From a virus: 64,000 bases of DNA. The stretch lies in IMG/VR virus record IMGVR_UViG_3300037054_000079, positions 1 through 64,000 of that record; one strand, written 5' to 3'. Shown here piece by piece: positions 2,988-22,334 of this stretch. A model generated the notes under the pieces. That model saw only the letters and a list, made by a program, of their open reading frames with translations. It was not told the DNA's origin and did not search any database. A program made the translations under genes and the position numbers. The first letter of the stretch is position 1; each line of letters opens with the position of its first letter.

Positions 2988-3000
2988 CAACCAGCGTTAT
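2988..3000 (-). promoter_or_regulatory. 13-bp late-arm motif ATAACGCTGGTTG, copy 1
   Basis: Exact copies at 16619-16631 and 22335-22347. Confidence 0.5.
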
Positions 3001-3869
3001 TGGCTGACGCGCTTGACCGGCTTGGTATCGCCGATCTTGCTGCCGACCTGCGCAGCCAGCGCAGCGGCCTTAACTTCACCCATGGTCTTGATAGCTTGAC
3101 CTTGCTGAGTGACGTTCCAGCCTTCTTCGGACCACGGGTTCTCGGCGCGCAGTCCGCCGCCACCGGAGCCACCGCCGCGCGAATTGCCACCGACCGAGGT
3201 CGGCCACCAATGCGGCTTCTTGTCTTGCTGATCCTTGAACCATTCCTTTGGCTCGATGCCCGGCATCGCGTCCACGTTGTCTTTCGTGAGCACGCGCCCG
3301 GCTTCGGTGACTTCGAAGACGCGCATCGCATTGAGCACCGCGTCGTCGATAGCTGTCGGGACCACCTTCGCAGCGATAGCCGCGTCGCGGATCGAACGCT
3401 CGACCGTTGTCATAACGATGGTGGACTTGAGTCCGGTGACTTCCTGCGCTGCCACTTCGGTCGCTTTGCGGGCGGCATCGAGATCGCGCTGCAACTGCGA
3501 CTTGTCGCGCTCAAGCGGGCCGGTGGCGCGCTTGATACGGGCTTCGATGATTGGTTCGAGCTTGGTCTCGTCGAGCTTGCCGTCCTTGGTGAACGCTTCA
3601 AGCTGCGCCTTGGACGTAGCCAGTTCTTCGAGTTGCGCGGGGATCAGTTCGGGGTCAATTTCGCCGAACTTGAGAAGTCTGTCGCGCACCGCCTTGTGAT
3701 CGGTCTTCTCTTTGCGGAGAGCTTCTTGAACCCGGTCGATGTCGCCTTGGGTCTTGACGCCTTCGATGCCAGTCAACTCAAACTGTCCGTTGCGTTCCGA
3801 GTAGAGGTCGGCAAAGCCCTCTGGAATTTCCTCTGCCGTCTTGTAGATGGTAATGAGCTTTGCAGCCAT
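2997..3869 (-). CDS. Capsid scaffolding protein
   Basis: Coiled-coil body, HWWP, Gly-rich linker and C-terminal NPW..WNVTQQG tail typical of phage scaffolds; downstream of portal and minor head genes. Confidence 0.8.
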   Translation of the reverse strand: MAAKLITIYKTAEEIPEGFADLYSERNGQFELTGIEGVKTQGDIDRVQEALRKEKTDHKAVRDRLLKFGEIDPELIPAQLEELATSKAQLEAFTKDGKLDETKLEPIIEARIKRATGPLERDKSQLQRDLDAARKATEVAAQEVTGLKSTIVMTTVERSIRDAAIAAKVVPTAIDDAVLNAMRVFEVTEAGRVLTKDNVDAMPGIEPKEWFKDQQDKKPHWWPTSVGGNSRGGGSGGGGLRAENPWSEEGWNVTQQGQAIKTMGEVKAAALAAQVGSKIGDTKPVKRVSQ

Positions 3870-4430: not shown

Positions 4431-4765
4431 ATAAATGCCGTGGCGAGCTTCCCGTTCGGGTCCTCGCCGTATCCATCCAAGACTTTGCCAACATCGGCAA
4501 CGTCTAGGGGAATATCTGTATCCTCGTAGCAGTAGTGGACTTGCTTCTTGGCATCCAAAAAATAGAACACGCGATGGCCCGGCTCGCTGAATTTAGGCGA
4601 CATCCGGACCGATGATCTCTTGATTGGTTCGCGCGCGGGCGGCGCGGCCACAACGACTGGCGGCTTGTCATTGACAACGACGCGCGTAGGCGCGGGCGCG
4701 TGGAAAATGAATATCGCCACGAGCAAGACGAGCACAACGATAGCGCCGATGGAATTTTTGCTCAC
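4421..4765 (-). CDS. Hypothetical membrane-anchored protein
   Basis: N-terminal hydrophobic helix; overlaps both neighbours. Confidence 0.55.
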   Translation of the reverse strand: MSKNSIGAIVVLVLLVAIFIFHAPAPTRVVVNDKPPVVVAAPPAREPIKRSSVRMSPKFSEPGHRVFYFLDAKKQVHYCYEDTDIPLDVADVGKVLDGYGEDPNGKLATAFICL

Positions 4766-5430
4766 TTGGGGACTCCCTTTTTGCGGAGATTACGAGCCTT
4801 AATCGCCGCACGCGCAAGCTGCAAAATGTGGTGCCGAGTGACTTCGGTCATACCGTCAATGCCGTTTACCTTGGCACTGCCGACCACTTTTCGAGCGATT
4901 TCAGTGTTTTCCAGTCCGGCCATTAACCATGTTCGGATCGTCTTGTCAAGCCGGGCTTTATCCTCTGCCGCAAAATGCCCGGCCCAAACTGCCAAACTGT
5001 GCCCGTGAATAGGGGTGTTCCCAATACGGGAACGGAGATACCGGAACGCCTTTTTGATAGCCTTGGTGCGGACTATTGCCACCCGCGCCGCTGCCCGATC
5101 TGCGGCCTTCATGGCTTCGCCGACTCGAATGCCACTGATCCCGGCGACATCGACGAGATCGCGCTCGATCATGTCTCGCACCCGGATTTCAGACTGATCG
5201 AGGATCGCGACCGTACCGTTCCAAATCTTGATGAACCGCGCGAGATTGGCTTTCTTGATCCGAGCCTCGACCGCGTGCAGCCGAGCCATCGTCTCGGGCC
5301 GCACGGGTTTGTGTACCGGGGGATGTTCGAGGCGATGCTTCGCACGGTTGCGGTCGCGGATCACCTTGCGGTTCACGCGCCCGAGCGGGGACAGCCAATG
5401 ATGATCGCTGTCGAGGTTGATGGTGGTCAT
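4762..5430 (-). CDS. Minor head (Mu gpF/SPP1 gp7-like) protein, apparently C-terminally truncated
   Basis: AGLENTEIARKVVGS..DGMTEVTRHH..LARAAI resembles the MuF core; lies between portal and scaffold. Confidence 0.55.
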   Translation of the reverse strand: MTTINLDSDHHWLSPLGRVNRKVIRDRNRAKHRLEHPPVHKPVRPETMARLHAVEARIKKANLARFIKIWNGTVAILDQSEIRVRDMIERDLVDVAGISGIRVGEAMKAADRAAARVAIVRTKAIKKAFRYLRSRIGNTPIHGHSLAVWAGHFAAEDKARLDKTIRTWLMAGLENTEIARKVVGSAKVNGIDGMTEVTRHHILQLARAAIKARNLRKKGVPK

Positions 5431-7861: not shown

Positions 7862-9511
7862 TTAATACTTCTTGTTAGCCGAAGCACCTTTCGGTCCTAA
7901 TTTTCTTTTTAGCGGAACCGGCGAGCCGCGCACGTGCGGCGTGACCGGGACGTTCGCGTTCGGCGGGATCATCGGCGCAGTTGGGTTCGGCGGTGCCTGA
8001 GTTGGATCGCCGGGATCGTCGCCGCTGCCTTCCGTATCAAGGAACGACTCGTCAGTTACCGTTTGCTGCGGCCCGACCATTGAGCCAATCAGTGTCTCCG
8101 CCTCGTCCTCGATCTGTTTGGTCTCTTGATCGAAGTCCATTTCGGTCATGTCGTTGAGCCGCATCATGCGGTGCATCGACTTGAGCGACAACGGCAGACC
8201 AAGTTGCTTGGCTTGCATGAAGGCGAGCAGCGCGGCTCCGGCGACGTTGGTGTCGGCGAAGTCGGTCGTCGGCTCTACACTCACTTCGTCCGGGTCCTCA
8301 CCGACCCACTGTGCGGCGTATTTGAGCGCCTGTTCCAAACCCGCTCCCGCCGTTTGCGCGGTTGCCGAGATCGTGGTCGTGCGCGCCGCGACGCGGATAC
8401 GCAATGCCTCGCCACTTTCGCCGCGCGCATTGCCCACATCCATAAACGAGACGCCGAACGACGCGGCTATATCCGAGTCATTCTTGAGAGATTGACGCAT
8501 TTCGCCAAGCCCCGTCGCTGAGACGCCGATGTATTTGGCGTCGCCGCCGATCTTGACTGAGATCAAGCCCTTGTTGCCGACGCGCAAGTCCGTCCCGTCA
8601 TCGCTTGGGTTCGCGCCGACGAGGACAAGAGTTTGCTGGCCCTGCATGTAGAGGGTCTGCCGATAGTCCGCCTCGCCGCGATAGATCGCGAGTGCGAGGT
8701 TGCTCAGCCCGAGCAGCGGGGGGACTTCCGGCTCAGGTACAAGGTCGTTCGCTCCGATGAAGACGAACGGGATATCTTGAAGCGTGGTGCCACCAATCTG
8801 CGGAACGATAAAATCGTTCGGGACTGGCATTGACATATCGTTGACTTTGACGCAGATCGAGAACTGATCGGTCGGCTCAGGGCGCGTCCATCCGCTTTCC
8901 AGTGCGTCAGGAATGCCACGAGACAAGACGCGATGCTTGCGCTCAGTGACCCATGTAAAGCCTTCACGGCGAAAGCCGCTCTCGTCGAGCACGACGAGAT
9001 CGAGCATGTTGCGCCCCTCGTTGAGCTTACCGGCGTCCCAATTGATGATGCGCTGCGGATTGTAGAATGAGATGTACGGCGTCGCCTGATCCACGTCCGC
9101 GCCAGTCGGCACGTCCACGAGCAAACCGCAGCGGCCATAGGTGAGTTGCGCCTCGTTGATCCGGCGCAACAGCATTTGCAGACCCTCGCCTTGAATTGTC
9201 GCCTTGTTCATCATACTGGCGAGCTTCGGCGGCAGCGTAATCGTGGCGGGCTTCATGTGCATGATGCCGACCATGGCTTTCACGGCATCACGGACGCAAT
9301 CGTGAAAGACAGCGCGCGTCAAGTATGCGTCGTAATCTTTCCAGCCCGGAGCCATCGAGGATGTCATACCATCACTCACCATCGCTTCGGTCGCGGGCAG
9401 ATATGTGATACGCTTCTTCTTGACCTCGCGCTCACCGGCATAGGTATCCGCCATTTGCAGCCAACTTCCGACTTGCTCAACGTAATTTGGGTGCTTATCG
9501 TCAAGACTCAA
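7862..9511 (-). CDS. Portal protein (DUF4055-like)
   Basis: HPNY..W..M.DTYAGE..VK....YLP, YLTRA.F, IPFVFIG, PPLLGL.NL...YR..ADY, ESGEALRIR; TTG start after GGAGG; follows TerL. Confidence 0.88.
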   Translation of the reverse strand: MSLDDKHPNYVEQVGSWLQMADTYAGEREVKKKRITYLPATEAMVSDGMTSSMAPGWKDYDAYLTRAVFHDCVRDAVKAMVGIMHMKPATITLPPKLASMMNKATIQGEGLQMLLRRINEAQLTYGRCGLLVDVPTGADVDQATPYISFYNPQRIINWDAGKLNEGRNMLDLVVLDESGFRREGFTWVTERKHRVLSRGIPDALESGWTRPEPTDQFSICVKVNDMSMPVPNDFIVPQIGGTTLQDIPFVFIGANDLVPEPEVPPLLGLSNLALAIYRGEADYRQTLYMQGQQTLVLVGANPSDDGTDLRVGNKGLISVKIGGDAKYIGVSATGLGEMRQSLKNDSDIAASFGVSFMDVGNARGESGEALRIRVAARTTTISATAQTAGAGLEQALKYAAQWVGEDPDEVSVEPTTDFADTNVAGAALLAFMQAKQLGLPLSLKSMHRMMRLNDMTEMDFDQETKQIEDEAETLIGSMVGPQQTVTDESFLDTEGSGDDPGDPTQAPPNPTAPMIPPNANVPVTPHVRGSPVPLKRKLGPKGASANKKY

Positions 9512-10034
9512 TTTGGCCTCCCACTGGATTTGCAACACGCTTCATCCACGAAGCGATTGCTTCATGTTCATCAGCGGTGCCGTCACTCTTTAGCTGGTTC
9601 GCGCGCCAACTCACGATGAAAACATTTCCTTTGACGTAACCCCGCGAGTTATCTTTCCGGTCAAGGGACGCCAAACTATATCGGGCCGCATCACGCGGGT
9701 CCCATCCTAACCTAGTCTCATAGACCAACCTCAATCCTAGAATTGGACAGTAGACAGGAAGCGGCAACAAATCCGCTTCTTGAAGATTGAACTCAAGTCT
9801 GCGCTTCTTCGCACTTTTCCGTGCAGTCGTGAGAAGTCTTTGAAGCGGCGGCCTTCCGTGATACCAAGCATCAAATTCTGCTTTGTGGCGCTCAGGATTT
9901 TCATTGCGACGTTTCGCACACCAATCAATGTTCTTTTGGTGGCTGTGCGGACTAGCATCATACCGCGCTCTCGTAGCGCGCCCCTTCGGCGTTACCGCGT
10001 AGATAGCTTGCCGTTCTGTGTGAGTCATCGACAT
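9501..10034 (-). CDS. HNH-type homing endonuclease
   Basis: CPILG..ASLDRKDNSRGYVKGNVFIVSWRAN. Confidence 0.8.
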   Translation of the reverse strand: MSMTHTERQAIYAVTPKGRATRARYDASPHSHQKNIDWCAKRRNENPERHKAEFDAWYHGRPPLQRLLTTARKSAKKRRLEFNLQEADLLPLPVYCPILGLRLVYETRLGWDPRDAARYSLASLDRKDNSRGYVKGNVFIVSWRANQLKSDGTADEHEAIASWMKRVANPVGGQIES

Positions 10035-10049
10035 CCCAAGTTCACTCCA

Positions 10050-12437
10050 TTAAATGTGTCGGCTTATGACGCCGCGCGACTCATACCGAAGTCTATACCG
10101 AGTCATGTCGCCGCAGTTGCGGACAAGAATGCCACCCTCAACTGAGAAGGTGTGATTTGTGGGGACTGTCAAGCAATAGACATCGCGTCTATCTAGCAAG
10201 TTTTCGACGCCGACGCAAGTCACGCGCCTTGCATCGCCCGCTACAGAACTTTGCATCGTTTCGGCGCATATAAGACGCCTTGAAATATTCTCCGCACTCT
10301 TTGCAATGTAGCCCGACGCGCTTCTCAGCAACCGCCCGAACATGCTTTTCGTAATTATCGGAGTGCCATTTGCGTCCTTGCTTTGACGCATGCCATGCGG
10401 CGGCAGCGACTCGCGCGCGACCGAGATATTTCCTACCGCGCTCACCAAACTCTTTTCCGTGGTAGTGAACTCCAAAATGCTCTTTAACGGTAAGGCATTC
10501 AAGCTCAGTGCTCTCGTTCCTGTCCCGAGTAAACCGATGATGGATATGATGCCCATCCGGCACAGGTCCGTTATGGTGCTCCCACACTTGGATATGAAGG
10601 CGAACGCCTTTTCGCTGGAAATATTTCCCGCAAAGATAGTATCGAACTCCGTCGAACTCTTGGATCGTGTGGCTGATAACGATTGGCTGCATAGGACTTC
10701 CTTTCCGAGAAGGTCCTTAGCGTAACACCATTCATCTAAATCCACAAGGTATTTTTCGTCCGGCGTGCAGACTATTGACTGACCGCCTGAAAAGGTTAAT
10801 CGCACGACTTGGGCCGCTTTTCGCGTGAGCCGGGCGTCTTGATATGACTCGATCCGACTGACCGAATGAACATCTCCCGACTGCGGCAACTGCTCAATCG
10901 GGACTTGACCGCTAGGCAAGTCAACAAGAGTCCCGGCGGCAAAGCAGTGGTCTTCCGCCTCAGTGTCCACATCGTCGATTTTTACTTCATCCCTTGGCAG
11001 CACCGGAACAGTTTGCAACCATTGCTCGCAATTGCTGCAAATAAACAGACCCGGTATTTCACGATATCCGTTCGGCGGTCGCTTCGTTGCCTTGAGCCAT
11101 CGCCGGAGTTGCTCCCATCCTTGCTCGCGTGAGTGCGGACCCTTGTCCGCAGGCTCCCACAGGATGCCTCGGTGGTGGACGCCGTTATACACTATTGGTT
11201 TGGCAAAGTCATTAGCAATGCACACCCCATTATTATCGTCGAAAATGCCGGTGTCTGCGGGACCGCGTTTGACCCGGTTACGCTTGCCGTCTTCTGCGCG
11301 CCAGCCCCACTCTACCTCACGTTTCACGATGCCTTTGGCGATATCCTCGACCAGCATCCGCGACCCCTCGTTACGCTGCCCGCGCCAACCGTACCACTCT
11401 TGAATGAGAAACAAGTCGCCCCGAACAGTGGCGCGAACGCTACTGTCCGGGAACGTCAAGTCAGTACCATCGCTCTCCGCGAACCATCCGACTGAGAACG
11501 GTTTCGATGAGCCATAGTCGAAGGCGCGAGTGATAGTCCAAGTCGGGGGGACTTCGAAAGGCGGAACGACAACAATTGATTTATACTCATACCAAATATC
11601 GTCGAACATGCCGCCCGCGACGATATCCCAATCGCCGTCGAGCCATGCGCGGCGCTCGCTCTCGTTGCGCGCGGCGGCGATAATCCGGTTCTTGTATTCC
11701 GGATCGGTATGCAGTAGCAGCTTGTTCTCGTCGAGATGGCCGTGCACGGCGCGGCGCGGCGGCTCGCTGTGGCCTTCCGAGTCAAGCGAACCTTCGATCA
11801 GCGGACCGATGATGTGGCCCGGCGGCACGGGCAAGCGGTAGCGCAGCTTGACCCAATTGTGCCCGACGCCATATGGATTGGTCGTGGCGCGGACTTTGAG
11901 GGGGATACCCGGCGCAGTTGAACGTAGACACGAGAACATGGACTTGAAGCACTTGTCGTCAGGCCATGTCGTTAATTCTTCCCACCCGATCCATGGATAG
12001 TTGTGACCGTGGTAGTTGCTGTATTGCGATGGCACTTCGAAGTGGCGGAAGTAGAGCCGCTCGCCCGTGGGAAACTCCCACTGATATTTCATTTCGTTGT
12101 AGAGCGCGCCGGGACAGAACCGCCTAAACCACTTCTTGCTTTTCTCGATCACGTCGCTCAACTGCGGATGCGTCTGCCGGAATAGGATGCCGCGCCATTC
12201 AGCGCCGTAGCCTTGCCCGACATGCTGATAGAAATCCATGAGCAGCGCGTCAGTCTTGCCGGGGCCGCGCGTGCCTTCGTATAGAACTTCGGTAGTTGAG
12301 AAAGAAAGAAATGCCGCTTGCGAGCCGGGCTGCGCGGCCCACGCCACTTGTATTAGTTTTCCATCGTCGCCAGTGATGAATGGAACGTATTCATTGCCCA
12401 CAAGTTTGAACTTTTTTACAGTCGGGAACTTAGACAT
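10050..12437 (-). CDS. terL: Terminase large subunit containing an intein
   Basis: Walker A GTRGPGKT, Walker B WIGWEELT, ATTNPYG, nuclease FDYG and EDH/CGD..RY split by the intein. Confidence 0.93.
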   Translation of the reverse strand: MSKFPTVKKFKLVGNEYVPFITGDDGKLIQVAWAAQPGSQAAFLSFSTTEVLYEGTRGPGKTDALLMDFYQHVGQGYGAEWRGILFRQTHPQLSDVIEKSKKWFRRFCPGALYNEMKYQWEFPTGERLYFRHFEVPSQYSNYHGHNYPWIGWEELTTWPDDKCFKSMFSCLRSTAPGIPLKVRATTNPYGVGHNWVKLRYRLPVPPGHIIGPLIEGSLDSEGHSEPPRRAVHGHLDENKLLLHTDPEYKNRIIAAARNESERRAWLDGDWDIVAGGMFDDIWYEYKSIVVVPPFEVPPTWTITRAFDYGSSKPFSVGWFAESDGTDLTFPDSSVRATVRGDLFLIQEWYGWRGQRNEGSRMLVEDIAKGIVKREVEWGWRAEDGKRNRVKRGPADTGIFDDNNGVCIANDFAKPIVYNGVHHRGILWEPADKGPHSREQGWEQLRRWLKATKRPPNGYREIPGLFICSNCEQWLQTVPVLPRDEVKIDDVDTEAEDHCFAAGTLVDLPSGQVPIEQLPQSGDVHSVSRIESYQDARLTRKAAQVVRLTFSGGQSIVCTPDEKYLVDLDEWCYAKDLLGKEVLCSQSLSATRSKSSTEFDTIFAGNISSEKAFAFISKCGSTITDLCRMGIISIIGLLGTGTRALSLNALPLKSILEFTTTEKSLVSAVGNISVARESLPPHGMRQSKDANGTPIITKSMFGRLLRSASGYIAKSAENISRRLICAETMQSSVAGDARRVTCVGVENLLDRRDVYCLTVPTNHTFSVEGGILVRNCGDMTRYRLRYESRGVISRHI
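10116..10946 (-). mobile_element. Intein (277 aa) in the TerL nuclease domain
   Basis: Begins CFAAGTLV; block B CTPDEK; block F VYCLTV; ends GILVRN followed by Cys +1; removal restores EDH-CGDMTRY. Confidence 0.88.
10189..10692 (-). CDS. HNH endonuclease nested in an alternative frame inside the TerL intein
   Basis: RLHIQVWEHHNGPVPDGHHIHH..NESTELECL...EH and C-terminal CKEC..FCSGRC; own SD (GGAAAGGAAG) before ATG. Confidence 0.8.
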   Translation of the reverse strand: MQPIVISHTIQEFDGVRYYLCGKYFQRKGVRLHIQVWEHHNGPVPDGHHIHHRFTRDRNESTELECLTVKEHFGVHYHGKEFGERGRKYLGRARVAAAAWHASKQGRKWHSDNYEKHVRAVAEKRVGLHCKECGEYFKASYMRRNDAKFCSGRCKARDLRRRRKLAR

Positions 12438-13302
12438 GCGCGCTATCCCCGGACTTCCTGTGAAAGAGTTTAAGTGATGCGGATATCTTTTCCCGAGTCT
12501 CCCCTGAAATAAACTTACCCTTCTGCGCCTTCGACATATTTATGAGCGCGCCGGGCGTCGCTTTTCGTCCGGTATTGGCGTCAGATATTTTTGCACAGTG
12601 TTCTTCGGAGAGGGGCACGCCACGACGAAGATCAGCCGACAGCTTAATCAACTGCGACATATCCCGCCCGATCCCCGTTCCTTTCGCTTTATGAGTGGCA
12701 GATATTTTTTCGTTGGTCTCTATTGAGTGCGATCCGAGAACCCGCCCCTTGTTAGCCGTGCCAATCTTTGCTTTGGTCTCCGCTGAATGTTTATACCCGC
12801 GCGCCTTCCGAGTTGCGACTATTTTTGCAGTGTGTTCGGGCGTGTGCTTCTCGCCAAGTCTTGCCGCCGACATTCTTGCGCGCTGCTCAGGGGTGAGCTT
12901 CTTTCCATTTCTGCGACGCGCCGCCACCCGGTTAGCAATATGCTCAAGAGATTGCTTTCGTCCCTTGTGAGTTTTACTAGCCGCTGCTGCCAACTTCACA
13001 CGAGTTGATGGCAATGGATCGCGACCGCCGCTGCCACCCGCCGCTAGATTGTATCCGTTGGGCCATCGCGTGTTGAATGCCTCAATGGCTTGTTCCTCAA
13101 GCTCATAGATATATTCGTGACTACCACACGCGAGTACGCGGAAGCTCGCGGCGTCGCGGCCATAGTGCCGGATCGCATCGCCAATCTTTGATGCAGTTAT
13201 AGGGTGATGACCCCATCGGTCCCGCACATTTTTTGAGACGCCGATATACGACTTCTCACCAACCGTGATACTGTATAAGTAGTGGGGTTTTGACGTTTCC
13301 AT
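12430..13302 (-). CDS. GIY-YIG homing endonuclease with NUMOD3 repeats
   Basis: YLY..SYIG, R..H, GYN..GG and repeated HSxETxxKIS/GRK motifs. Confidence 0.85.
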   Translation of the reverse strand: METSKPHYLYSITVGEKSYIGVSKNVRDRWGHHPITASKIGDAIRHYGRDAASFRVLACGSHEYIYELEEQAIEAFNTRWPNGYNLAAGGSGGRDPLPSTRVKLAAAASKTHKGRKQSLEHIANRVAARRRNGKKLTPEQRARMSAARLGEKHTPEHTAKIVATRKARGYKHSAETKAKIGTANKGRVLGSHSIETNEKISATHKAKGTGIGRDMSQLIKLSADLRRGVPLSEEHCAKISDANTGRKATPGALINMSKAQKGKFISGETREKISASLKLFHRKSGDSAHV

Positions 13303-13997
13303 CAGTCAAGCTCTAGCATTGCTTTATCCACCGCGTCAACAGTGTCGTCAGTAACGTCCTCGAACTCCACATCCTGAATTTCCTGCGTCCCACCAAATTC
13401 CTGTTCGAGTTCTGCCTCGGTCTTTTTGACGCCGACCACGAGCACGCCGCCGCTGTGTACCATGTCAACCGATGTGTGATCGCCGTACACGTTTCGGCGG
13501 CGCGTCTTCAAAATGAAGCGCATCATGTCCGGGTCTTGTTCGATGATGGTCTGTGGGATTGGTGCGCCGTTCTCGTCGCGCAAATACGCATCCATGCCTT
13601 CCAAGCCAAGATCAAGCTTGGTCTGATCGAACTTGTAAATCACGCCGTATTTGTTCGTGAGGGGCTTCGGCTGGCCAACAGCAAGACGGTGCGCAGCACG
13701 CTCAACTTTGTCGATGCCGTCTTCGAGCGCGTGTGCCCATGCCACATGGAACCGCGCCGTGATATCATTGCCGTGCTCGTCTTCGCCCACGACCACATCG
13801 AAACCATCGCCGACCTTACCTTTCTCGCTTTTCCCGAGATAGTATACCAGCGACGACCGCGAGATCGCGGCACGCCGACATACTTCGGCGATGACAGGCA
13901 TCTCGGTTACAAATTTGAGGATTGCTTGAAGGCGCTCAGGCGCATACTTGCGCACCAATAGCTGCCGATTTGCGGAACGAAAAATCTCTCGGGACAT
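13302..13997 (-). CDS. terS: Probable terminase small subunit
   Basis: N-terminal HTH (AEVCRRAAISRSSLVYY), F..AW..ALEDG.D.VE..A..LA, MMRFILK.RR..VYGD; upstream of TerL. Confidence 0.65.
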   Translation of the reverse strand: MSREIFRSANRQLLVRKYAPERLQAILKFVTEMPVIAEVCRRAAISRSSLVYYLGKSEKGKVGDGFDVVVGEDEHGNDITARFHVAWAHALEDGIDKVERAAHRLAVGQPKPLTNKYGVIYKFDQTKLDLGLEGMDAYLRDENGAPIPQTIIEQDPDMMRFILKTRRRNVYGDHTSVDMVHSGGVLVVGVKKTEAELEQEFGGTQEIQDVEFEDVTDDTVDAVDKAMLELD

Positions 13998-14096: not shown

Positions 14097-14372
14097 TTAC
14101 TTTCCGAACGGGTGAGTCGGGTTCTGCCTTTTTAATGGCGACGCTGCCGGGTGAGTGCCGACCGACTGCACGCCCGCATGGGGCGCGACCGGAGGCCGGA
14201 ACTTGCTGCCCTTTGGCGGCGACGCCGCGAATTTCTGCGCGAGAGCATTGGGATTGAGCGGCGGCTGCGGGCCGCCCGGCTGAACCGCAGGCGCACCCAC
14301 GCTCATTGGCGTGGGTGCTCCGGCAGTTGTGCCCGCCGCGCTGGCATTTGCGATGTTGAGAGCGACTGCCAC
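14097..14372 (-). CDS. Hypothetical low-complexity protein
   Basis: Pro/Ala-rich; shares H.G..SVGTH with the 14540 ORF. Confidence 0.5.
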   Translation of the reverse strand: MAVALNIANASAAGTTAGAPTPMSVGAPAVQPGGPQPPLNPNALAQKFAASPPKGSKFRPPVAPHAGVQSVGTHPAASPLKRQNPTHPFGK

Positions 14373-14376
14373 GTTA

Positions 14377-14517
14377 TCACCCGAGCAAGAGGAACAGGAT
14401 GACGATGACCACGAGCAAACTCAGGCCGCCGCCATAGTAGTGATACGGAGGACCGGCATAGTAGCCGCCGCCGCCGAAAAGAAGAACAAGCACGATCAAG
14501 AGAACAATTAAGCCCAT
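14377..14517 (-). CDS. Small two-helix membrane protein, DUF3309-like (46 aa)
   Basis: Hand-translated MGLIVLLIVLVLLFGGGGYYAGPPYHYYGGGLSLLVVIVILFLLLG; AGGAGG SD. Confidence 0.65.
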   Translation of the reverse strand: MGLIVLLIVLVLLFGGGGYYAGPPYHYYGGGLSLLVVIVILFLLLG

Positions 14518-14539
14518 TCGAGCCTCCTACAGTTGTCGA

Positions 14540-14728
14540 TCATTTGATCTTTCGACGCGATTTATGTGTCCCTACTGATCTCCGTCCGGCGTGCATCCCC
14601 ATCACTGCTCGAATGATCCGGCTCTTTTTGGCTGTTATTTGTTGGCCGTATCCGGCAAAACGCTGCGGTACGATCACGTCCGAAACGGTCGTTGAAACAT
14701 TCGGGCCGGGGGCCGAGCCACCGTCCAT
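14540..14728 (-). CDS. Small protein resembling a major capsid protein N-terminal arm
   Basis: TTVSDVIVPQRFAGYGQQITAKKSRII resembles T.lSDVIVPE.F..YvqQ.T.ekS.li MCP N-termini. Confidence 0.45.
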   Translation of the reverse strand: MDGGSAPGPNVSTTVSDVIVPQRFAGYGQQITAKKSRIIRAVMGMHAGRRSVGTHKSRRKIK

Positions 14729-14729
14729 A

Positions 14730-15032
14730 TCAAAGCTTCAATTCTGCCGGTCGAACCGGAGCGTCAAGAGTCGGACCCTTGGCTGCGCCCTTCATGCCAA
14801 ACGCGGTCGGCACATTCTTCGTGCTGACAGTGCGTGTCTGATCGGCGAATATGACTTTGGGATTTGGATCGAGCGAGACAGCCAACTCACTGCGCGTCGG
14901 GTTCTTGAGATCGGTGTCCGAGCTTGCGCCGGAGTAGCCATTTTCACCATAGCCAGTTTTTGTGTTGTCGCGGTTTGCCGGTTGAATGGCCGGGAAGTCC
15001 CGCATTTTTGAACCCACGATCAAGTCAGCCAT
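14730..15032 (-). CDS. Hypothetical protein
   Basis: GGGGAG SD; tightly packed in the operon. Confidence 0.6.
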   Translation of the reverse strand: MADLIVGSKMRDFPAIQPANRDNTKTGYGENGYSGASSDTDLKNPTRSELAVSLDPNPKVIFADQTRTVSTKNVPTAFGMKGAAKGPTLDAPVRPAELKL

Positions 15033-15043
15033 GGCACTCTCCC

Positions 15044-15460
15044 CTATTCATCCGCGTGCAGCTTCTTATGACAGCTACGACAAAGCGGCTCACATCTCGC
15101 GATCTCTGTATCTACCCGCTCGATTGACTTTCCCTGAGCGACAAGAGATGAAACTCTATCATGCGGACGATTAGGGTGGTCCTCGTGGTGCCAATCAATC
15201 GGCTGTGCCCCACATCGGGTGCAATACGTTCGCGCCCGGATTTTCTTGACATGATCTTTTACGAGCTTTCTTGCGCGTACTCTATCAGGCCGTAACCACC
15301 GCTTTCGCTCCACTTCCTTTTTGCTCGTCGAGTCCGCTGCATAGCGATCTCGATCATACTGTCGAACTGTATCCGGAAACAGTTTCCGGCGTTCTCGCTG
15401 AGTGGCGGCACGGCGTATTCGAAAATCGTCCGCACTCTCGTTTCGTCGGGGACTTACCAT
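15044..15460 (-). CDS. HNH endonuclease
   Basis: CTRCG..IDWHH..EIARCEPLCRSCHKKLH. Confidence 0.78.
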   Translation of the reverse strand: MVSPRRNESADDFRIRRAATQRERRKLFPDTVRQYDRDRYAADSTSKKEVERKRWLRPDRVRARKLVKDHVKKIRARTYCTRCGAQPIDWHHEDHPNRPHDRVSSLVAQGKSIERVDTEIARCEPLCRSCHKKLHADE

Positions 15461-15492
15461 CCCCCTCTATTTATACCCTTCCCGTACCCAAG

Positions 15493-15870
15493 TCAATTCC
15501 GATATGGGCCGCGCGACGAACTGTCTACCGGAACTTGACCGTCCGACGAGCGCGGGTTAGCGTCACTCGCGGTCCGGAATAGTCCCGGCTGTAATCCCGG
15601 ATGGATCGGGACATTCCGAGAGCCATCCGGCGCTTCATCTTCTAGCCCGGCGTGCATCGAGAGTGACGCTCGAACCGGGTCAATCTGGCCGCCCGGCGGG
15701 ATGTTCGCGATTTGCGCGCCCTTCGAGCTTGACCACTGAGAGTTACCGCCGACGAACGCTGTCTGTCCGCCCGGTGCGGTGCCGCCGAAATTGGTTACAT
15801 CCGACTCTTGCTGTTGCGTCGGACGAGTGCTATCGAGACCCGAGTAGCCCGTTCCTCGTTGCTTTATCAT
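15493..15870 (-). CDS. Hypothetical Gly/Pro-rich protein (RNVPxHP motif)
   Basis: Overlap coupling; motif shared with the 15867 ORF. Confidence 0.55.
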   Translation of the reverse strand: MIKQRGTGYSGLDSTRPTQQQESDVTNFGGTAPGGQTAFVGGNSQWSSSKGAQIANIPPGGQIDPVRASLSMHAGLEDEAPDGSRNVPIHPGLQPGLFRTASDANPRSSDGQVPVDSSSRGPYRN

Positions 15871-16127
15871 GTGCCGAACCCCCTACCCGTAGGGTCTCGA
15901 ACTGATCCGTCCCCTTCCGTCTCGTTGGTATCAGTGCCTTCGGAGGGAACCTGAGCCGGGTGCAGCGGGACATTCCTGTCACCGTTTGCAACCTGCTTTG
16001 CGTTGTCGGCGAGACCGTTGTGCATGGTGGCCGCAGCGGTCTCCGGCGCTATTGCGTCAAAGCCCGGAGCGAGATTAGCCTCGGCTCCGAGCGTATCTTG
16101 TCGCGCGCCATGGAAGGCGCGAGTCAT
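15867..16127 (-). CDS. Hypothetical protein (RNVPxHP motif)
   Basis: Abuts the previous stop codon; shared motif. Confidence 0.55.
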   Translation of the reverse strand: MTRAFHGARQDTLGAEANLAPGFDAIAPETAAATMHNGLADNAKQVANGDRNVPLHPAQVPSEGTDTNETEGDGSVRDPTGRGFGT

Positions 16128-16571
16128 TTAGTTCGAGTCGCGGCCCGAGTAGGCCGGAGCCGCCCCGCCCGCTTCTTTCGTCGAAGCCGGGAATGCAGTG
16201 CTGCCCGACAAGATTGCCTCGCCGAGAACCTTGCCACCTAGACCGTAGTCGAGACCGTTGCCGTCGCCATCGACCGGAGTTCCGGGATTGGCTTTGATCT
16301 CGGTGGGTTGACGCCGAAGCAACTTGGACTGCGGTTCGGGATCGAGCGGGTTCGGAGACGACGCATCCGGACCCGTGCCGGGAACGGCGGGACTGATGCC
16401 CGACATCGTGGTCATGTCTTTCATGCCCCACTTGTTCTCGAACGTAGTTTGGGGATGCTTGGCTTTGCCGCTGCGCGGGTCAACCGGAGTGTTCGCGACC
16501 TGATCGACTCGTGGGCCATCGGGACCTGCACCGAGTCCGCTACCTTTTACAGCCATTGGATTACCCTCCAA
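16128..16571 (-). CDS. Hypothetical Gly/Pro-rich protein
   Basis: GGAGGG SD precedes the internal MAVKG start. Confidence 0.6.
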   Translation of the reverse strand: MEGNPMAVKGSGLGAGPDGPRVDQVANTPVDPRSGKAKHPQTTFENKWGMKDMTTMSGISPAVPGTGPDASSPNPLDPEPQSKLLRRQPTEIKANPGTPVDGDGNGLDYGLGGKVLGEAILSGSTAFPASTKEAGGAAPAYSGRDSN

Positions 16572-17210: not shown

Positions 17211-17404
17211 AGCTCAACATCCTTTGGGACAGCCGTCCCTAACCTTTCATGAGCCTGACGATAACGTAGACTATGCGGCGTGAGATGCGGCAAGCCGGTG
17301 CGCTGACCCTCCATCCCTTTGTGCGCCTCGACCTGAGCCGACTTAGGATTTCGCGCGAGCATCGCCGCTGCGTCGTCATTCGTGCACGCTACCGGCTTCT
17401 TCAT
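17207..17404 (-). CDS. Hypothetical protein (AAAMLA.NPKSAQV motif)
   Basis: ATGA overlaps; shared motif. Confidence 0.55.
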   Translation of the reverse strand: MKKPVACTNDDAAAMLARNPKSAQVEAHKGMEGQRTGLPHLTPHSLRYRQAHERLGTAVPKDVEL

Positions 17405-17859
17405 TTTCCTGTCCCGCCCGTCATGATTGTCTTGCCCTTCCGGACATCCCAAATTGACTCTTGGTTCCGGTTCACGCCGGTCCGATACGCCGCGTTCTTG
17501 TTCTTGATGTTCTGCGACGGCTCGATCTCATAGTTGCCGGTCGTCTCGTTGCGGTAGCCGCCGACATGCCCGGCGGTTTTCAGCGCGCCCGCGTGTTGCT
17601 GCGCCCACGCTTGCAACGTCGCCTCGCTGTGTGCCGGATCGCCACCAAGCGGGGCAGTGAGCGCGTGTCCCGGAATAGCGACCTGATAACCGTTAGACGG
17701 TGCGCCGCCCTTGAGGTCAATCGTGAAACCTTCCGGGTGCGCGAGGATATGCTGCACAACTTGCGGACTCAAGAATGGTTTGCCGACCTGATCGACGCCG
17801 GTCGAGTGCGCAGCGGTGCCGCCGCGCGTATTGCTTCCGTGTCCTAATGCGTCTTTCAT
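17401..17859 (-). CDS. KDAxGHGS-leader protein 10
   Basis: MKDALGHGSNTRGGTAAHSTGVDQVG followed by a globular domain ending RNQESIWD. Confidence 0.75.
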   Translation of the reverse strand: MKDALGHGSNTRGGTAAHSTGVDQVGKPFLSPQVVQHILAHPEGFTIDLKGGAPSNGYQVAIPGHALTAPLGGDPAHSEATLQAWAQQHAGALKTAGHVGGYRNETTGNYEIEPSQNIKNKNAAYRTGVNRNQESIWDVRKGKTIMTGGTGK

Positions 17860-17860
17860 T

Positions 17861-18046
17861 TCACTTGCCTGTTTGCTGTGCCTTTTGACGCAGGGCGGCA
17901 TTGAGTAGGACCTGTCGCTGCCCTCGTGATATGTCTACAAGGTCCCTGTCGCTCGCGCTACTTACGAGTGCGCTGCGCGGAACCGACCGGGCATCTTCTA
18001 CACCCGATTGATGCGCGGCGCTACCGTGTCCGAGTGCATCTTTCAT
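17861..18046 (-). CDS. KDAxGHGS-leader protein 9
   Basis: MKDALGHGSAAHQSGV. Confidence 0.7.
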   Translation of the reverse strand: MKDALGHGSAAHQSGVEDARSVPRSALVSSASDRDLVDISRGQRQVLLNAALRQKAQQTGK

Positions 18047-18258
18047 CGCTTTCCCCAAATCTTGTCGTGTTCGGCCATCATCTCGTCAGTGGTTTTCAGT
18101 TTGCCGATCCCGGTTTGATGCGCGGCGAGCTTGTCCGAGTCAAGAATGCCCTGCGCCCATGTGCCCGCTGCGCGATTGAACCCTGAAACCGCATCCCGGT
18201 AATTCTGTCCGCGCGCGGTGCCGTTACCGTCGCTTCCGTGACCGTGCGCATCCTTCAT
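18043..18258 (-). CDS. KDAxGHGS-leader protein 8
   Basis: MKDAHGHGSDG..AAHQTGI. Confidence 0.72.
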   Translation of the reverse strand: MKDAHGHGSDGNGTARGQNYRDAVSGFNRAAGTWAQGILDSDKLAAHQTGIGKLKTTDEMMAEHDKIWGKR

Positions 18259-18680
18259 CGTCCGACTGCCTTATGAAAACGATCTATCCGCGCCAGTTGC
18301 CCCTTGTTGGCTGGACCACCGTGTTCTCGCTTGAAGTCTTGGAGTGCAGCCGGTGAACCCCACTCGTGTCCCGACGAGTTATGCGTAGTCGAGTTTATCT
18401 GCGGAGCCGAATTTATATGCTGAGTCGGAATGCCGTGCTGAGCAGCCAGAACCATTTGGTGTGCAGTGCTAGAACCAAACTTTGCAGTGAGACCCGCTTC
18501 TGAGTTAGCTCCAAGTCGTTTGGACTGAAACTGATCCGCTAGAGCGTGACCGAAAGTAACCGGCTTATCATCGTACTGCCCACGCGCGACTTGATGCGCT
18601 ATCGAACCGTGAAAGCGGGACTCCGCCGCACCGCCGCCGCCGCCGCGCGCTTCGCTTCCGTGTCCCTTTGCATCCTTCAT
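18255..18680 (-). CDS. KDAxGHGS-leader protein 7
   Basis: MKDAKGHGSEARGG. Confidence 0.72.
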   Translation of the reverse strand: MKDAKGHGSEARGGGGGAAESRFHGSIAHQVARGQYDDKPVTFGHALADQFQSKRLGANSEAGLTAKFGSSTAHQMVLAAQHGIPTQHINSAPQINSTTHNSSGHEWGSPAALQDFKREHGGPANKGQLARIDRFHKAVGR

Positions 18681-18683
18681 GGC

Positions 18684-19097
18684 TTAAAACCTTTTGTTCT
18701 TCCCGACGTATTCGGGACTGGCCGGGTCATGGAACCTAGCCCGATCACGCCCCCATGCGACACCGCTGCGATTTTGAGCTTCCTCGCCGACTGCTTTCGC
18801 AATTGCGTTGTGCATCTTTCCCGGATCGTCCATGCCGACCATCGTCACTCCCTTCGGCAACGACATTCCGCCGTGTACCGGAACGCTGCCCGACTTCGGG
18901 CCATTGCCTGCGGTCGCGCTGGCGGCGTTCATAAAGTCCGGCTTCGGACCTTCGCCCGCCATGTAATCGAGGAAGTCATGAATGCCACGCCGATTTTCAT
19001 TCATCGGCTTGGCACCGTCTTTGACGCGCATCGCGTTGAGGCGGTCAAACGTGCTGCCGCCGCGACTGTCACTCCCGTGTCCTTTTGCGTCTTTCAT
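18684..19097 (-). CDS. KDAxGHGS-leader protein 6
   Basis: MKDAKGHGSDSRGG; GAGGA SD. Confidence 0.72.
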   Translation of the reverse strand: MKDAKGHGSDSRGGSTFDRLNAMRVKDGAKPMNENRRGIHDFLDYMAGEGPKPDFMNAASATAGNGPKSGSVPVHGGMSLPKGVTMVGMDDPGKMHNAIAKAVGEEAQNRSGVAWGRDRARFHDPASPEYVGKNKRF

Positions 19098-19104
19098 GGC
19101 ATCC

Positions 19105-19497
19105 TCACTTGAATGATTTGCGCCGCATCGTGTCAACGTCCGTGCCGCCCGTACCGAGTGCCTTGTGCAGCGACCGGGCGAGGCCGCCGTTGAATTCATT
19201 GTTGATGGCGTCGGCGTGGCTCACGCCCTTCTTGATACTCTCCGCCGCGCGTTGAGCGCCCCAGAGATAAATCCCGAGCGCATTCGGGTTGTAGTAGGAC
19301 CCCTTCACTTCGGCCCGAGCTTGTTCTTTCCGGTCGTAGCCGGTGACCGCGTGTGACAAAGCCCTGTGAACGTCGCCCGACGCCAACACCTTGCGCACCA
19401 TGCTTTGATGCGCAGCCATTTCGCCGGGGCCGAACTGCTTAGTGAGCGCCGTGCCGCCGCGACTTTCGCTGCCGTGTCCGCCTGCATCTTTTGCCAT
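19105..19497 (-). CDS. KDAxGHGS-leader protein 5
   Basis: MAKDAGGHGSESRGG..AAHQS, then a YDRK..YNPNALGIY domain. Confidence 0.75.
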   Translation of the reverse strand: MAKDAGGHGSESRGGTALTKQFGPGEMAAHQSMVRKVLASGDVHRALSHAVTGYDRKEQARAEVKGSYYNPNALGIYLWGAQRAAESIKKGVSHADAINNEFNGGLARSLHKALGTGGTDVDTMRRKSFK

Positions 19498-19498
19498 G

Positions 19499-19765
19499 TT
19501 ACACTCCCCGCCTACGATTTTCAGCGCCCGCCGGAAGCGCGACCATGCGCCCGCGCGCGAGCGCGGTCTTTGCAGCTTGGAAACTTTGCCCGAGCGGAAC
19601 CTGAGCCGACTTAGGGTGCGCCAGCCCGAGCGCCTGCGCCGCCGCTAAGTCTTGCGGCGTGCGCGTCGGGAAGTGTCGTTCGTCGATCCCTCGACGAATA
19701 GAAAGCTGTTCGGCTTTCGCGCTGCCGGTCGGATTGCTGCCGTGGCCCTGTGCATCTTTTGCCAT
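19499..19765 (-). CDS. KDAxGHGS-leader protein 4
   Basis: MAKDAQGHGSNP..AAAQAL..HPKSAQVP. Confidence 0.72.
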   Translation of the reverse strand: MAKDAQGHGSNPTGSAKAEQLSIRRGIDERHFPTRTPQDLAAAQALGLAHPKSAQVPLGQSFQAAKTALARGRMVALPAGAENRRRGV

Positions 19766-19769
19766 TGTC

Positions 19770-20288
19770 TTACCCTTTCACGCGCCGAACTGTATGTCCG
19801 GCGAAATCATTGCCTGTCAAGTAGCGGAGCGCGCCCGAGATATGATCGGCGGGGAAGCTATTGCTGCCCTTCTTTGACGCCAGATAGTCGGGCATCGAAA
19901 CTGCGTCGTGGATCGACGGACCCCCGCTGCGGGAAATTCCGCCGCCCTTCCCTTCGTCCACACCGAAGCCGTTGTTCTTGCCGAGGTTCATGCGCGCCGC
20001 GACTTCGCCGGTCGGCGAAACGATTTCGTGCGTGTAGCTGTTCATGTTGAACTTTTGCGCGGGCGCGGGTTGACCAACTTGCGCGACACCCGACGAGTGC
20101 GCCGCTAGGGCGGAGACGTTTTTCACAGCTTGTGAATTTGCAGCGGCTTCCGCCGTGGTCGGTTGACGACCGAACATGCGTTGACCACCTTGGACCCTCG
20201 GATTGTATCCGGGCTTGCCACTTGCGCTCTTGGCATAGTCACCGCCGCCGCGACTTTCGCTGCCGTGTCCGCCTGCATCTTTCGCCAT
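19770..20288 (-). CDS. KDAxGHGS-leader protein 3
   Basis: MAKDAGGHGSESRGG..AAHSSGVAQVG. Confidence 0.75.
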   Translation of the reverse strand: MAKDAGGHGSESRGGGDYAKSASGKPGYNPRVQGGQRMFGRQPTTAEAAANSQAVKNVSALAAHSSGVAQVGQPAPAQKFNMNSYTHEIVSPTGEVAARMNLGKNNGFGVDEGKGGGISRSGGPSIHDAVSMPDYLASKKGSNSFPADHISGALRYLTGNDFAGHTVRRVKG

Positions 20289-20291
20289 GAC

Positions 20292-20444
20292 TCAATCTCC
20301 CAAAAAGCTGTAGACCTGTTTCACGATATCCTCGTGCTGCACCATTGCAATCGCACGCGCGGGGCCAGCCGGATACCAAAACTCGACGAGGACTTTATGT
20401 CGCCACATCGCCGCTTCGCGCATCGCTGTCCAGAACATGAGCAT
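20292..20444 (-). CDS. Hypothetical 50-aa protein
   Basis: Hand-translated MLMFWTAMREAAMWRHKVLVEF..; fills the gap with a TGATG overlap. Confidence 0.4.
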   Translation of the reverse strand: MLMFWTAMREAAMWRHKVLVEFWYPAGPARAIAMVQHEDIVKQVYSFLGD

Positions 20445-20665
20445 CAGTTCACTCCGCAACCTGCTTTGAACTTCCCTTTATTGAACCGAGGGTTTGTCCC
20501 GGCCAGTGCATCGGCTAAATCCCCGACTATCTTCGAGTGCGGCTGGCCTACATTTTTTGCCAGTACACCCGAGAGCAACTGAAAATGCTTCGGCCCCATC
20601 GCAACGCCGCGCCCGATCTGTTCGACGCCCTCCGAATGCTGCCCTCTGTCAGCGGCCTTCTTCAT
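20444..20665 (-). CDS. Small phage protein with NPRF..F..AC-type domain and HxxGVxQIG motif
   Basis: QHSEGVEQIG..KHFQLL..LADALAGTNPRFNKGKFKAGCG. Confidence 0.65.
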   Translation of the reverse strand: MKKAADRGQHSEGVEQIGRGVAMGPKHFQLLSGVLAKNVGQPHSKIVGDLADALAGTNPRFNKGKFKAGCGVN

Positions 20666-20673
20666 AGCTGTCC

Positions 20674-21258
20674 TTAGATTGGTCGAGTCTTTTGCCGAGC
20701 TACAGGTGCAGCCCGATTAAAAGTTTGGGTCCCGGCGCGCCCCGGTGAAAATGAAGCTTCGGGCTTGTACGTGCGACTCGATCCACTCTTGATGTCGCTG
20801 CGCTCGTCGCGCTCCCAATTGGCAGCCGCCTCGCGACGATCAGCCGGAGAGAACATTTGCTTGCCACTAGCCGCGCCCGAACCGTGCTGCTCGCCATAGG
20901 CTTGCGCGGCGCGGTCGGCATGATATTTCCACAACGTCTGCGCCTTGGCGGAGTCATAGACGCCCTTGTCCATTTTCTTGCCAAGGTTGTCGCGGATCGG
21001 CTGCATCGACTGACGGTGGAGATTGGCGTCGTTGTCGGCGAACAGCCGCAACTCGCGTGAGTTGGCACCTTCCGGCGCGAGTTTGCCAACCTGATCTACA
21101 CCCGTGCCGTGCGCGGGGATACCGACGATGGGCGGATTGTTGGATCGCGCCATGACGCCTTGGAGAAGTTGTGCGCCCTTGCTTGTATATCCGGGAACAA
21201 CAGGTGCGCCGCCACCGCCGCGCGCCTCGCTACCGTGTCCGCCTGCATCTTTTGCCAT
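20674..21258 (-). CDS. KDAxGHGS-leader protein 2
   Basis: MAKDAGGHGSEARGG..PAHGTGVDQVG, then an RELxLFADND..L.KKM.KG.YD..KA..LW domain. Confidence 0.78.
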   Translation of the reverse strand: MAKDAGGHGSEARGGGGAPVVPGYTSKGAQLLQGVMARSNNPPIVGIPAHGTGVDQVGKLAPEGANSRELRLFADNDANLHRQSMQPIRDNLGKKMDKGVYDSAKAQTLWKYHADRAAQAYGEQHGSGAASGKQMFSPADRREAAANWERDERSDIKSGSSRTYKPEASFSPGRAGTQTFNRAAPVARQKTRPI

Positions 21259-21530
21259 TACCGTCTCCCAAAGTTCTTGAGCGCCTGCAACAGCCCGGCT
21301 CCGTGGCCCGACTGCGGATCGACACTCCGCAACTGTTCGCGAACTCGCGAGAGCGTCTTTTGCGAGTCGGTCATCGCGCCTGCATTGAGGATTTTGCCAC
21401 TGAAACCGGGGGTGCCCGTGCCGAGACCAATGCGAGTATGGTTCATTGGCATGGGATCGTGCGGACGATATCCAAAATCGAGACCGCCGCCGCGCCCGTC
21501 GCTGCCGTGTCCTCGTGCGTCCTTTGCCAT
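21258..21530 (-). CDS. KDAxGHGS-leader protein 1
   Basis: MAKDARGHGSDGRGG; GGAG SD. Confidence 0.72.
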   Translation of the reverse strand: MAKDARGHGSDGRGGGLDFGYRPHDPMPMNHTRIGLGTGTPGFSGKILNAGAMTDSQKTLSRVREQLRSVDPQSGHGAGLLQALKNFGRR

Positions 21531-21624: not shown

Positions 21625-21855
21625 TTACTGATTGTGATAGGTCGAGTCGGTCTCGCCGAGAACGACATTCGCCTTGTGCCGGATTTTGGCTGCGTTCGCC
21701 GGGCTGAGCTTGCCCTTGGCAAGCATTTGAGTCGCACGGCCCTTGGCATCGGCGGCGTGGGCACGATCCCCGATAGGATAGCGGCCACCCGGCAATGCAA
21801 ATTTCTTTGCGCCACCAGTATGAGTCTTACGCTGTTTTGTGGTGAGAACTGCCAT
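21625..21855 (-). CDS. Small basic phage protein (FALPGGRYPI.D.AHA family, DUF6582-like)
   Basis: Motif typical of head-module-associated small proteins. Confidence 0.6.
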   Translation of the reverse strand: MAVLTTKQRKTHTGGAKKFALPGGRYPIGDRAHAADAKGRATQMLAKGKLSPANAAKIRHKANVVLGETDSTYHNQ

Positions 21856-22300: not shown

Positions 22301-22334
22301 AAGTGCCTCTTTTACCGCGAACGTCGATCCGCTG

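Follow-up and report, generated by a model that had tools for sequence, protein, structure and literature searches.

In phage T4, the capsid-targeting sequence (CTS) is the only conserved part of a diverse set of internal proteins, and it loads foreign proteins into the head (PMC3012670). Polyvalent proteins are held to be packaged and injected, according to the survey by Iyer, Burroughs, Anand, de Souza and Aravind (2017, PMC5512222). Here we describe an array of ten small phage genes that resembles both systems in part. The array was found in a window that comprises the first 64 kb (64,000 nucleotides) of the IMG/VR virus record IMGVR_UViG_3300037054_000079 (96,109 bp, about 90% complete). 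It occupies positions 17401–21530 of the minus strand, where ten co-oriented, tightly packed open reading frames (ORFs) of 61–194 amino acids (aa) all open with the leader M(A)KDAxGHGS. KDAxGHGS is most likely an undescribed label for head-loaded proteins. By analogy with T4, the array itself may be a split and shuffled set of injected proteins that carry a head-loading tag, a reading that we favor while rating it slightly below an even chance.

The degenerate DNA pattern for KDAxGHGS matched ten times in the window, compared with 0.00 matches expected from 100 shuffles, and no further copy was present in any frame beyond the ten array genes. The original prediction, made from the DNA letters alone, had named ten start positions; all were exact, each opening an M(A)KDAxGHGS ORF on the minus strand. 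It had also described xxRGG as frequent after the leader and the genes as mostly translationally coupled. The first of these follows directly in seven of the ten genes. As to coupling, a TAATG overlap joins g1 and g2, ATGA overlaps join g7 to g8 and g8 to g9, and the gaps elsewhere are 1–7 nt; the sole separated pair is g2 and g3, which have two leaderless small ORFs between them.

All of these genes lie on the minus strand, and the part that follows the leader is referred to below as the cargo (cargo clusters are given in parentheses). The first gene, g1 (21258..21530, 90 aa), joins the leader MAKDARGHGSDGRGGG to its cargo (c26) and has GGAG, resembling a ribosome binding site (RBS), before the ATG at 21530. 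In g2 (20674..21258, 194 aa), the leader precedes an AHGTGVDQVGK motif and a RELRLFADND cargo (c10), a cluster common to two other phages. Next is a leaderless 73-aa ORF (20444..20665) that carries the second motif (QHSEGVEQIGRG), followed by g3 (19770..20288, 172 aa) with the leader, AAHSSGVAQVGQ and cargo (c11). The leader is joined to a GHPKSAQVPLG motif in g4 (19499..19765, 88 aa; c6), to cargo in g5 (19105..19497, 130 aa; c17), to the motif GPKSGSVPVHGGM in g6 (18684..19097, 137 aa; c27), and to cargo again in g7 (18255..18680, 141 aa; c18) and g8 (18043..18258, 71 aa; c25). The shortest gene, g9 (17861..18046, 61 aa; c24), has AAHQSGV immediately after the leader. Finally, g10 (17401..17859, 152 aa; c1) carries the leader, AAHSTGVDQVGK and a cargo that is predicted to fold as an alpha/beta domain. 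The g10 family is the most conserved of the tagged families and is nearly always the last array gene in relatives.

Two further short motifs recur in a mosaic pattern: AHxxG[VI]xQ[VI]G, usually about 13 residues in, and (A)AxxLxSGPKSAPVPVHDSM. Both occur in tagged proteins and in leaderless ORFs at 14–17 kb and 20.4–20.7 kb. Since related His motifs are found in leaderless small ORFs, the motif system extends past the ten tagged genes. A promoter and terminator scan of 13–24 kb gave counts at chance level.

The residues K, D, A, G, H, G and S of the tag are invariant in 81 cargo-cluster representatives. We asked at what level this conservation acts, using 206 distinct leaders from the window phage and its relatives. 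All synonymous codons occur at every conserved residue, and the conserved Ser is encoded by both AGY and TCN codons. Third codon positions hold little information, and the DNA 5′ of the start shows only a weak RBS signal. Given the free use of synonymous codons and the unconserved upstream DNA, conservation acts on the peptide. An alternative in which the leader is mainly a DNA-level element, such as a recombination cassette boundary or a translation-initiation region, draws on the leader DNAs of g3 and g5, which are identical at 44 of 45 nt, with g2 nearly identical to both. It also draws on the gain, loss and reordering of cassettes that distinguish the arrays of relatives, and on the polymorphic internal-protein loci of T-even phages (PMC3012670). 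The near identity of the g2, g3 and g5 leader DNA fits recent cassette exchange but leaves the motif itself unexplained. Opposed to a DNA-level cause are the codon usage and uninformative flanking DNA just described, as well as in-frame internal copies of the tag within polyproteins (see below). From the codon and internal-copy evidence, homology-driven shuffling is a by-product at most. A DNA repeat or recombination signal behind the conservation was ruled out by the codon analysis, and we consider a DNA-level cassette signal to be very improbable, indeed essentially excluded, as the cause.

With the leader removed, the eleven tagged proteins of this genome (the ten array proteins and one encoded elsewhere in the record, described below) fall into eleven separate strict cargo clusters. 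Several of these clusters have their own orthologues in other phages. Across the wider set, 217 unique tagged proteins form 85 cargo clusters, and a profile–profile comparison (hhalign) of two tagged families aligned the first 18 columns, which are the leader, and nothing else. The claim that the sequences diverge completely after the leader is thus upheld by the ten array proteins forming ten clusters, and the end-to-end alignment expected of simple paralogs, which the original prediction had set against itself, was not found between these two families. The genes are tandem, co-oriented and small, as would be expected of ordinary diverged tandem paralogues in which the N-terminus is merely the best kept part. 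However, the ten separate clusters, each with orthologues in other phages, the restriction of alignment between families to 18 leader columns, and the joining of the same tag to protease, ART and GNAT domains all argue against this. Simple paralogy was ruled out by the clustering and hhalign results; it is essentially excluded and is, in our estimate, the least probable of the alternatives.

Searches of the ten array proteins against Pfam and PHROGs returned no family, apart from a weak match of g5 to a PHROG of unknown function. The original prediction had envisaged anti-defence cargo, for which these searches gave no support, as none of the ten cargo parts has a recognizable anti-defence domain. 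It had also taken several cargo parts for domains that phages usually encode on their own. Cargo domains standing alone were not found: of the 31 g10 homologues returned, those whose sequences were read were all tagged, one of them with a different tag. Most of the 81 cluster representatives likewise have no Pfam family; the exceptions are ART-PolyVal (two), GNAT (two), an Arr-like ART (one) and ParB_N (one). One cargo cluster of relatives has a HEIGH zincin motif (HExxH). None of ART-PolyVal, GNAT, ParB_N or HExxH occurs in the window's own ten genes. In an AlphaFold2 model of the g10 family, leader residues 1–19 are disordered (pLDDT, the predicted local distance difference test score, <50) and residues 30–150 form a confident alpha/beta domain (pLDDT >90). 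A search of the ESM Atlas with g10 returned only unnamed viral clusters. The possibility that the array encodes precursors of ribosomally synthesized and post-translationally modified peptides was considered and rejected: the cargo parts are 50–190 aa long and include at least one folded 120-aa domain, and no modifying enzyme adjoins the array.

The tag is found in phages and hardly at all outside them. A pattern scan of IMG/VR identified 115 loci with 323 peptide matches, 271 of which directly follow a start codon, in proteins of 22–204 aa (median 126 aa). When 596 Gb of bacterial and archaeal genome sequence was scanned, almost all matches were out-of-context chance matches; the real loci numbered three, in alphaproteobacterial/Hyphomicrobiales metagenome-assembled genomes. 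This near-absence from cellular genomes indicates that the tag is phage-specific, and the three loci suggest that the host of the window phage is probably alphaproteobacterial. A 28-position leader profile, searched exhaustively with HMMER against 1.84 billion representatives, detected 432 proteins (cluster representatives) at E ≤ 0.001. Of the best 150 of these, 131 are small (29–329 aa) with one N-terminal tag, the motif lying at residue 1–5, and 18 are proteins of 216–1707 aa with 2–4 internal tag copies. Among GenBank phages, neither blastn with the array region nor tblastn with g2 gave a match. The single marginal match of g10, to a Fusobacterium phage (28% identity, E 2e-3), is not credible, and a 30-aa leader query returned only chance matches on the wrong strand of Gordonia tape-measure genes. 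Keyword searches of the literature (DUF2213; XkdF/protease/capsid; GHGS/phage) did not bring up a description of the motif, although such searches could miss one.

About 40 related IMG/VR loci have arrays of 3–11 tagged genes in one conserved slot, and both content and gene order differ between relatives. The slot is bounded upstream by a phrog_16160 gene and downstream by a gene for a 147-aa Gly/Pro-rich protein, followed by the genes for the terminase small subunit (TerS), the terminase large subunit (TerL) and the portal. The original prediction had proposed a profile search of the leader for arrays near terminase; 42 of 43 arrays of 3–11 genes in other phages lie beside these flanking genes and TerS/TerL/portal. 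Its placement of the array upstream of TerS/TerL/portal on the structural strand was also correct, the array being 3.4 kb upstream of TerS. In the window, the upstream flank gene is at 21625..21855 (minus strand) and encodes 76 aa with the motif (F)ALPGGRYPI..(D)xAHAxxAxGRA; the protein could be a functional partner of the tag. The downstream 147-aa gene (16128..16571, minus strand) has no family. The interval between the array and TerS (14097..16127, minus strand) contains one HNH gene and small ORFs of low complexity, in which related His motifs occur (PHAGVQSVGTHP, NVPIHPG, NVPLHPA).

The tag also occurs in the tail module of this genome. The eleventh tagged gene (173 aa) lies outside the window at record position 88593–89114 (minus strand; locus L117:10594–11115), between the tape-measure gene and a gene for an 893-aa tail protein (tail tip), and its family is kept at this place in at least eight related loci. 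The cargo has no Pfam match and contains a conserved LPVWYHGSPTG..IHVGT; the YHG..HxGT pattern hints at an ART-like enzyme.

The head module of the window, all on the minus strand, runs in the order TerS (13302..13997), TerL with an intein (10050..12437), portal protein (DUF4055, phrog_145; 7862..9538), an 809-aa post-portal protein (5427..7856), a MuF-like head morphogenesis protein (phrog_241; 4762..5430) and scaffolding protein (phrog_206; 2997..3869). The portal protein shares about 47% identity with its counterparts in Roseobacter phage RDJL3 and Pseudomonas phages PaMx25 and NP1. The coat protein of a complete relative (G003) matches the SPP1 coat (4an5, 6r3a) with an E-value of 1.5e-50, and the clade has an SPP1-like head. 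After the scaffold gene, at the expected place of the coat gene, is a collagen-repeat protein of >973 aa (1–2919, minus strand) that runs off the record start. Genes for homing-type endonucleases (EndoVII/HNH, GIY-YIG) are unusually dense across the head and early modules (3918–4430, 9501–10034, 12430–13302, 15044–15460, 21827–22390, 26525–27067 and 31957–32580, all minus strand). The window phage may modify DNA bases, given a Mom-family protein that it encodes (29924–30670, minus strand; Pfam PF25680, E 1.5e-11).

We looked for head proteases in five records: this one and four relatives, of which three are complete. No S78, S78_2 (XkdF) or DUF2213 protease (PF04586, PF14550, PF09979) was detected, ClpP/S14, S49, S77 and Mu gpI lying outside the search. 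As positive controls, PF04586 and PF14550 were recovered in control genomes and PF09979 in a tagged locus of another lineage (L036).

In other lineages, the tag is embedded in head-protease and scaffold polyproteins. At L036, the portal gene is followed by genes for a 1201-aa MuF protein and then a DUF2213 protein (head maturation protease in PHROGs), in which the tag comes directly after the protease domain. At another locus (L103), a 318-aa tagged protein is encoded in the scaffold position, with MuF on one side and the major capsid protein on the other; it has a YPI..GRA segment like that of the phrog_16160 flank protein, then the tag. Another small tagged gene comes after the coat gene. 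The top match of the profile search, P0036, has an XkdF-type protease domain (Pfam E 2e-15) and then three tags that separate helical, scaffold-like modules. In an AlphaFold2 model of P0036, all three tags are in disordered linkers (pLDDT <50) between the protease domain and long helical modules; with the tags in these low-confidence linkers, the model gives no sign of the first tag docking on the protease. In P0038, the first of three tags directly follows a region whose match to DUF2213 is weak and below the curated cut-off. A complete 197-kb jumbo phage genome (G005) has eight tag copies, three of them within a 1082-aa polyprotein. Its loci L241/L242, at 9.6–47 kb, contain a run of very large proteins (520–1600 aa) that are started or punctuated by HDxxGRF, EHPRVPAGxxGGGEF, RDxxGRW and KDAxGHGS motifs, and from these motifs the whole region looks like one of tagged polyvalent-like proteins.

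The residues h-x-K-A stand just before 20 of 42 internal tag copies, and a cut before the tag would release modules that start like the stand-alone genes. This raises the alternative that the motif is a proteolytic processing signal only, cut as ..K-A|KDAxGHGS, with the stand-alone genes trimmed or activated by an unrecognized protease. Such a role would account for internal copies exactly at module joints, for tags directly behind XkdF and DUF2213 head-protease domains, and for their location in disordered linkers; the polyvalent-protein literature expects processing into units (PMC5512222), and an HExxH protein is encoded in a few arrays. It is at odds with the position of the motif at residue 1–5 in 131 of the 150 best matches, where a cut would remove almost nothing, and with the window's clade, where the head layout is of the SPP1 type, without a protease, and where three complete genomes yielded none of the S78, S78_2 and DUF2213 families. 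Moreover, XkdF proteases that are 46–60% identical carry quite different motifs at the same joint, a poor fit with one protease specificity. Because no S78, XkdF or DUF2213 protease was detected in the clade, a pure cleavage-site role cannot explain conservation there. Seven invariant N-terminal residues across about 85 cargo families, with no detectable head protease, indicate that the tag is more than a cut site. Thus, we consider a processing signal alone unlikely.

The joint behind the protease domain is also where the tag can be seen to exchange with other peptides. Homologues of the P0036 protease have, at the same post-protease position, WSDAARTAAAEARK, WTDQARQAA, HPRGKGGRF, HGPDGKFTSGGG or NHHHDNSGKFSSSGGG, and some of them carry ChaB or ART-PolyVal cargo. 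The exchange extends to stand-alone genes: in one g10 family member, MWSDEARQAA replaces the KDAxGHGS leader, and a few small genes in related arrays start with M(A)WSDAARQAA and continue with the same downstream motifs as the tagged genes. A further motif, RDxxGRW, is found at the start of the post-portal proteins. The 809-aa protein of the window, whose second tag is EQRDTRGRWTAG, and its counterparts in relatives begin with E-x-RDxxGRW-T-x-G, the relatives showing the fuller form (F/Y)(D/N)P(N/D)E(A/P)RDxxGRWT.GG; the same motif is internal in polyproteins of the jumbo phage. The 809-aa protein has no Pfam or PHROG family, and its C-terminus appears ART-like, as judged by eye only. The kinship of KDAxGHGS with RDxxGRW that had been suggested for this protein is plausible, as RDxxGRW too is both N-terminal (in the post-portal proteins) and internal (in the jumbo-phage polyprotein).

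More broadly, KDAxGHGS, WSDxARxAAxxAR, (N)HxHDxxG(K/R)F, HPRxxxGxF and RDxxGRW could be interchangeable module-start peptides of a general, undescribed head-loading address code of tailed phages, a wider proposal that we regard as possible but put well short of likely. Such a code would serve both the free-standing genes of protease-less SPP1-like phages and the joints of protease/scaffold and polyvalent polyproteins.

A different kind of partner could also be imagined for such peptides. The tag and the His motifs might be linear motifs that bind a non-virion partner in the cytoplasm, for example a host hub, a chaperone, a protease (as a degron) or a phage modifying enzyme. The tag is disordered, multivalent and mosaic with two other motifs, many tagged proteins are mostly low-complexity, and no virion partner is known, all of which would suit a cytoplasmic role. 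Left unexplained by it are the head-protease/scaffold, tail-module and terminase-adjacent placements, and the motif is essentially absent from cellular genomes. We judge this explanation improbable, to about the same degree as a processing signal alone.

The reading that we favor is of a peptide address. The tag is a peptide-level, portable and phage-specific element, disordered, situated in late and head contexts and interchangeable with other motifs. Its presence in protease/scaffold fusions, which have to enter the procapsid, and in head- and tail-module genes, the polyvalent-type cargo and the disorder point to a common destination inside the procapsid. Each protein would consist of a disordered tag, M(A)KDAxGHGS-xx-(R/H)-G, often one or two further His-centered motifs, and then an unrelated cargo. 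The tag would dock on coat, scaffold or portal and so bring the protein inside the procapsid of an SPP1-like head; carried in the virion, the tagged proteins would reach the host cell together with the DNA. In function they would resemble the T4 internal proteins and packaged polyvalent proteins, with a separate gene for each module. In phages with polyproteins, the tag would mark each flexible joint behind the head-protease domain, where the modules are presumably cut apart. The address tag similar to the T4 CTS put forward in the original prediction stands as to the portable peptide, the late slot, the head-module polyproteins and the packaged-type cargo of relatives; the enzyme needed for tagging followed by cutting was not found.

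Several points weigh against a head-loading role. Docking, encapsidation and injection are steps that we infer, and tags at polyprotein joints behind protease domains are equally expected of a processing site; an unrecognized protease in the window's clade is possible. The array is upstream of the terminase genes rather than in the portal-to-coat interval usual for known packaged proteins, and the coat gene is part of the roughly 10% of the genome that the record lacks. No cultured phage with the tag was found when GenBank phages were queried with the 30-aa leader. Pfam and PHROGs pointed to no recognizable function for any of the ten cargo parts in the window. Neither Foldseek (best E 0.74) nor VIA-align wide (best Z 3.3) turned up a PDB structure with a fold related to that of the g10 cargo, which, as modeled, may represent a new fold.

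If the tag is a head-loading signal, the proteins that accompany phage DNA into the cell could be recognized by their sequence. These are the counter-defence and takeover factors that act first, and today the only route to them is virion proteomics on phages in culture. The 432 tagged clusters, almost all without an annotated family, would then be a catalogue of candidate injected effectors of uncultured phages. The T4 capsid-targeting principle would be extended to SPP1-like siphophages without a head protease, and a small portable peptide would be available for packaging foreign proteins in phage particles. An address code of the wider kind would make injected effectors findable by sequence and allow foreign proteins to be loaded into many phages. 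If the motif instead serves processing or binding, it remains a linear motif of unusual sharpness that is specific to phages. Even then, it connects stand-alone genes, protease–scaffold fusions and polyvalent polyproteins, and shows how polyproteins are split and re-assorted.

Compared with T4, the array shares with IPI, IPII, IPIII and Alt a short N-terminal peptide that alone is common to unrelated small clustered proteins, and in both cases the cluster is polymorphic and its set varies between relatives (PMC3012670). The T4 internal proteins are loaded in the head and delivered with the DNA, and the same role is proposed for the tagged proteins. KDAxGHGS is unrelated in sequence to the T4 CTS and, unlike it, is also found inside polyproteins and can be exchanged for other tags. 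T4 has a gp21-type protease that removes the CTS at an LxE (L/I-x-E) cut site; in the window genes no LxE follows the tag, and none of the S78, S78_2 and DUF2213 proteases was found in genomes G000–G004 in a search that did not cover S77. A T4-like head, with a gp23 coat and gp22 core, was not found, the coat, portal and scaffold of the window's clade being SPP1-like.

Encapsulin cargo-loading peptides are short disordered terminal peptides that direct diverse cargo into a shell of HK97 fold, and they offer a working analogy for how the tag might dock on the inner face of the coat. They differ from the tag in sequence and are usually C-terminal, and encapsulins are not viruses.

The fusions with XkdF/Peptidase_S78_2 and DUF2213 (P0036, P0038, L036) have the same tag after the protease domain and between helical scaffold-like segments. 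The window phage, in contrast, has a separate scaffold gene, no such protease was found in it, and its tags are on free-standing small proteins. Some XkdF-fused forms carry ChaB and ART-PolyVal, which also belong to the polyvalent-protein repertoire (PMC5512222).

With polyvalent proteins, the tagged proteins of relatives have a domain repertoire in common (ART-PolyVal, ParB-like, zincin-like and GNAT), and both groups are expected to be processed into units and injected (PMC5512222). The text of that survey, searched for linker, motif, packaging-signal and GHG wording, showed no such tag. Both groups are also associated with MuF/portal head genes, the tag at L036 adjoining the 1201-aa MuF protein. 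The window's ten cargo parts match no polyvalent-protein domain, and the organization differs: polyvalent proteins combine 2–15 domains in one polypeptide, whereas in the window each module is a single gene of 61–194 aa with its own tag and one cargo.

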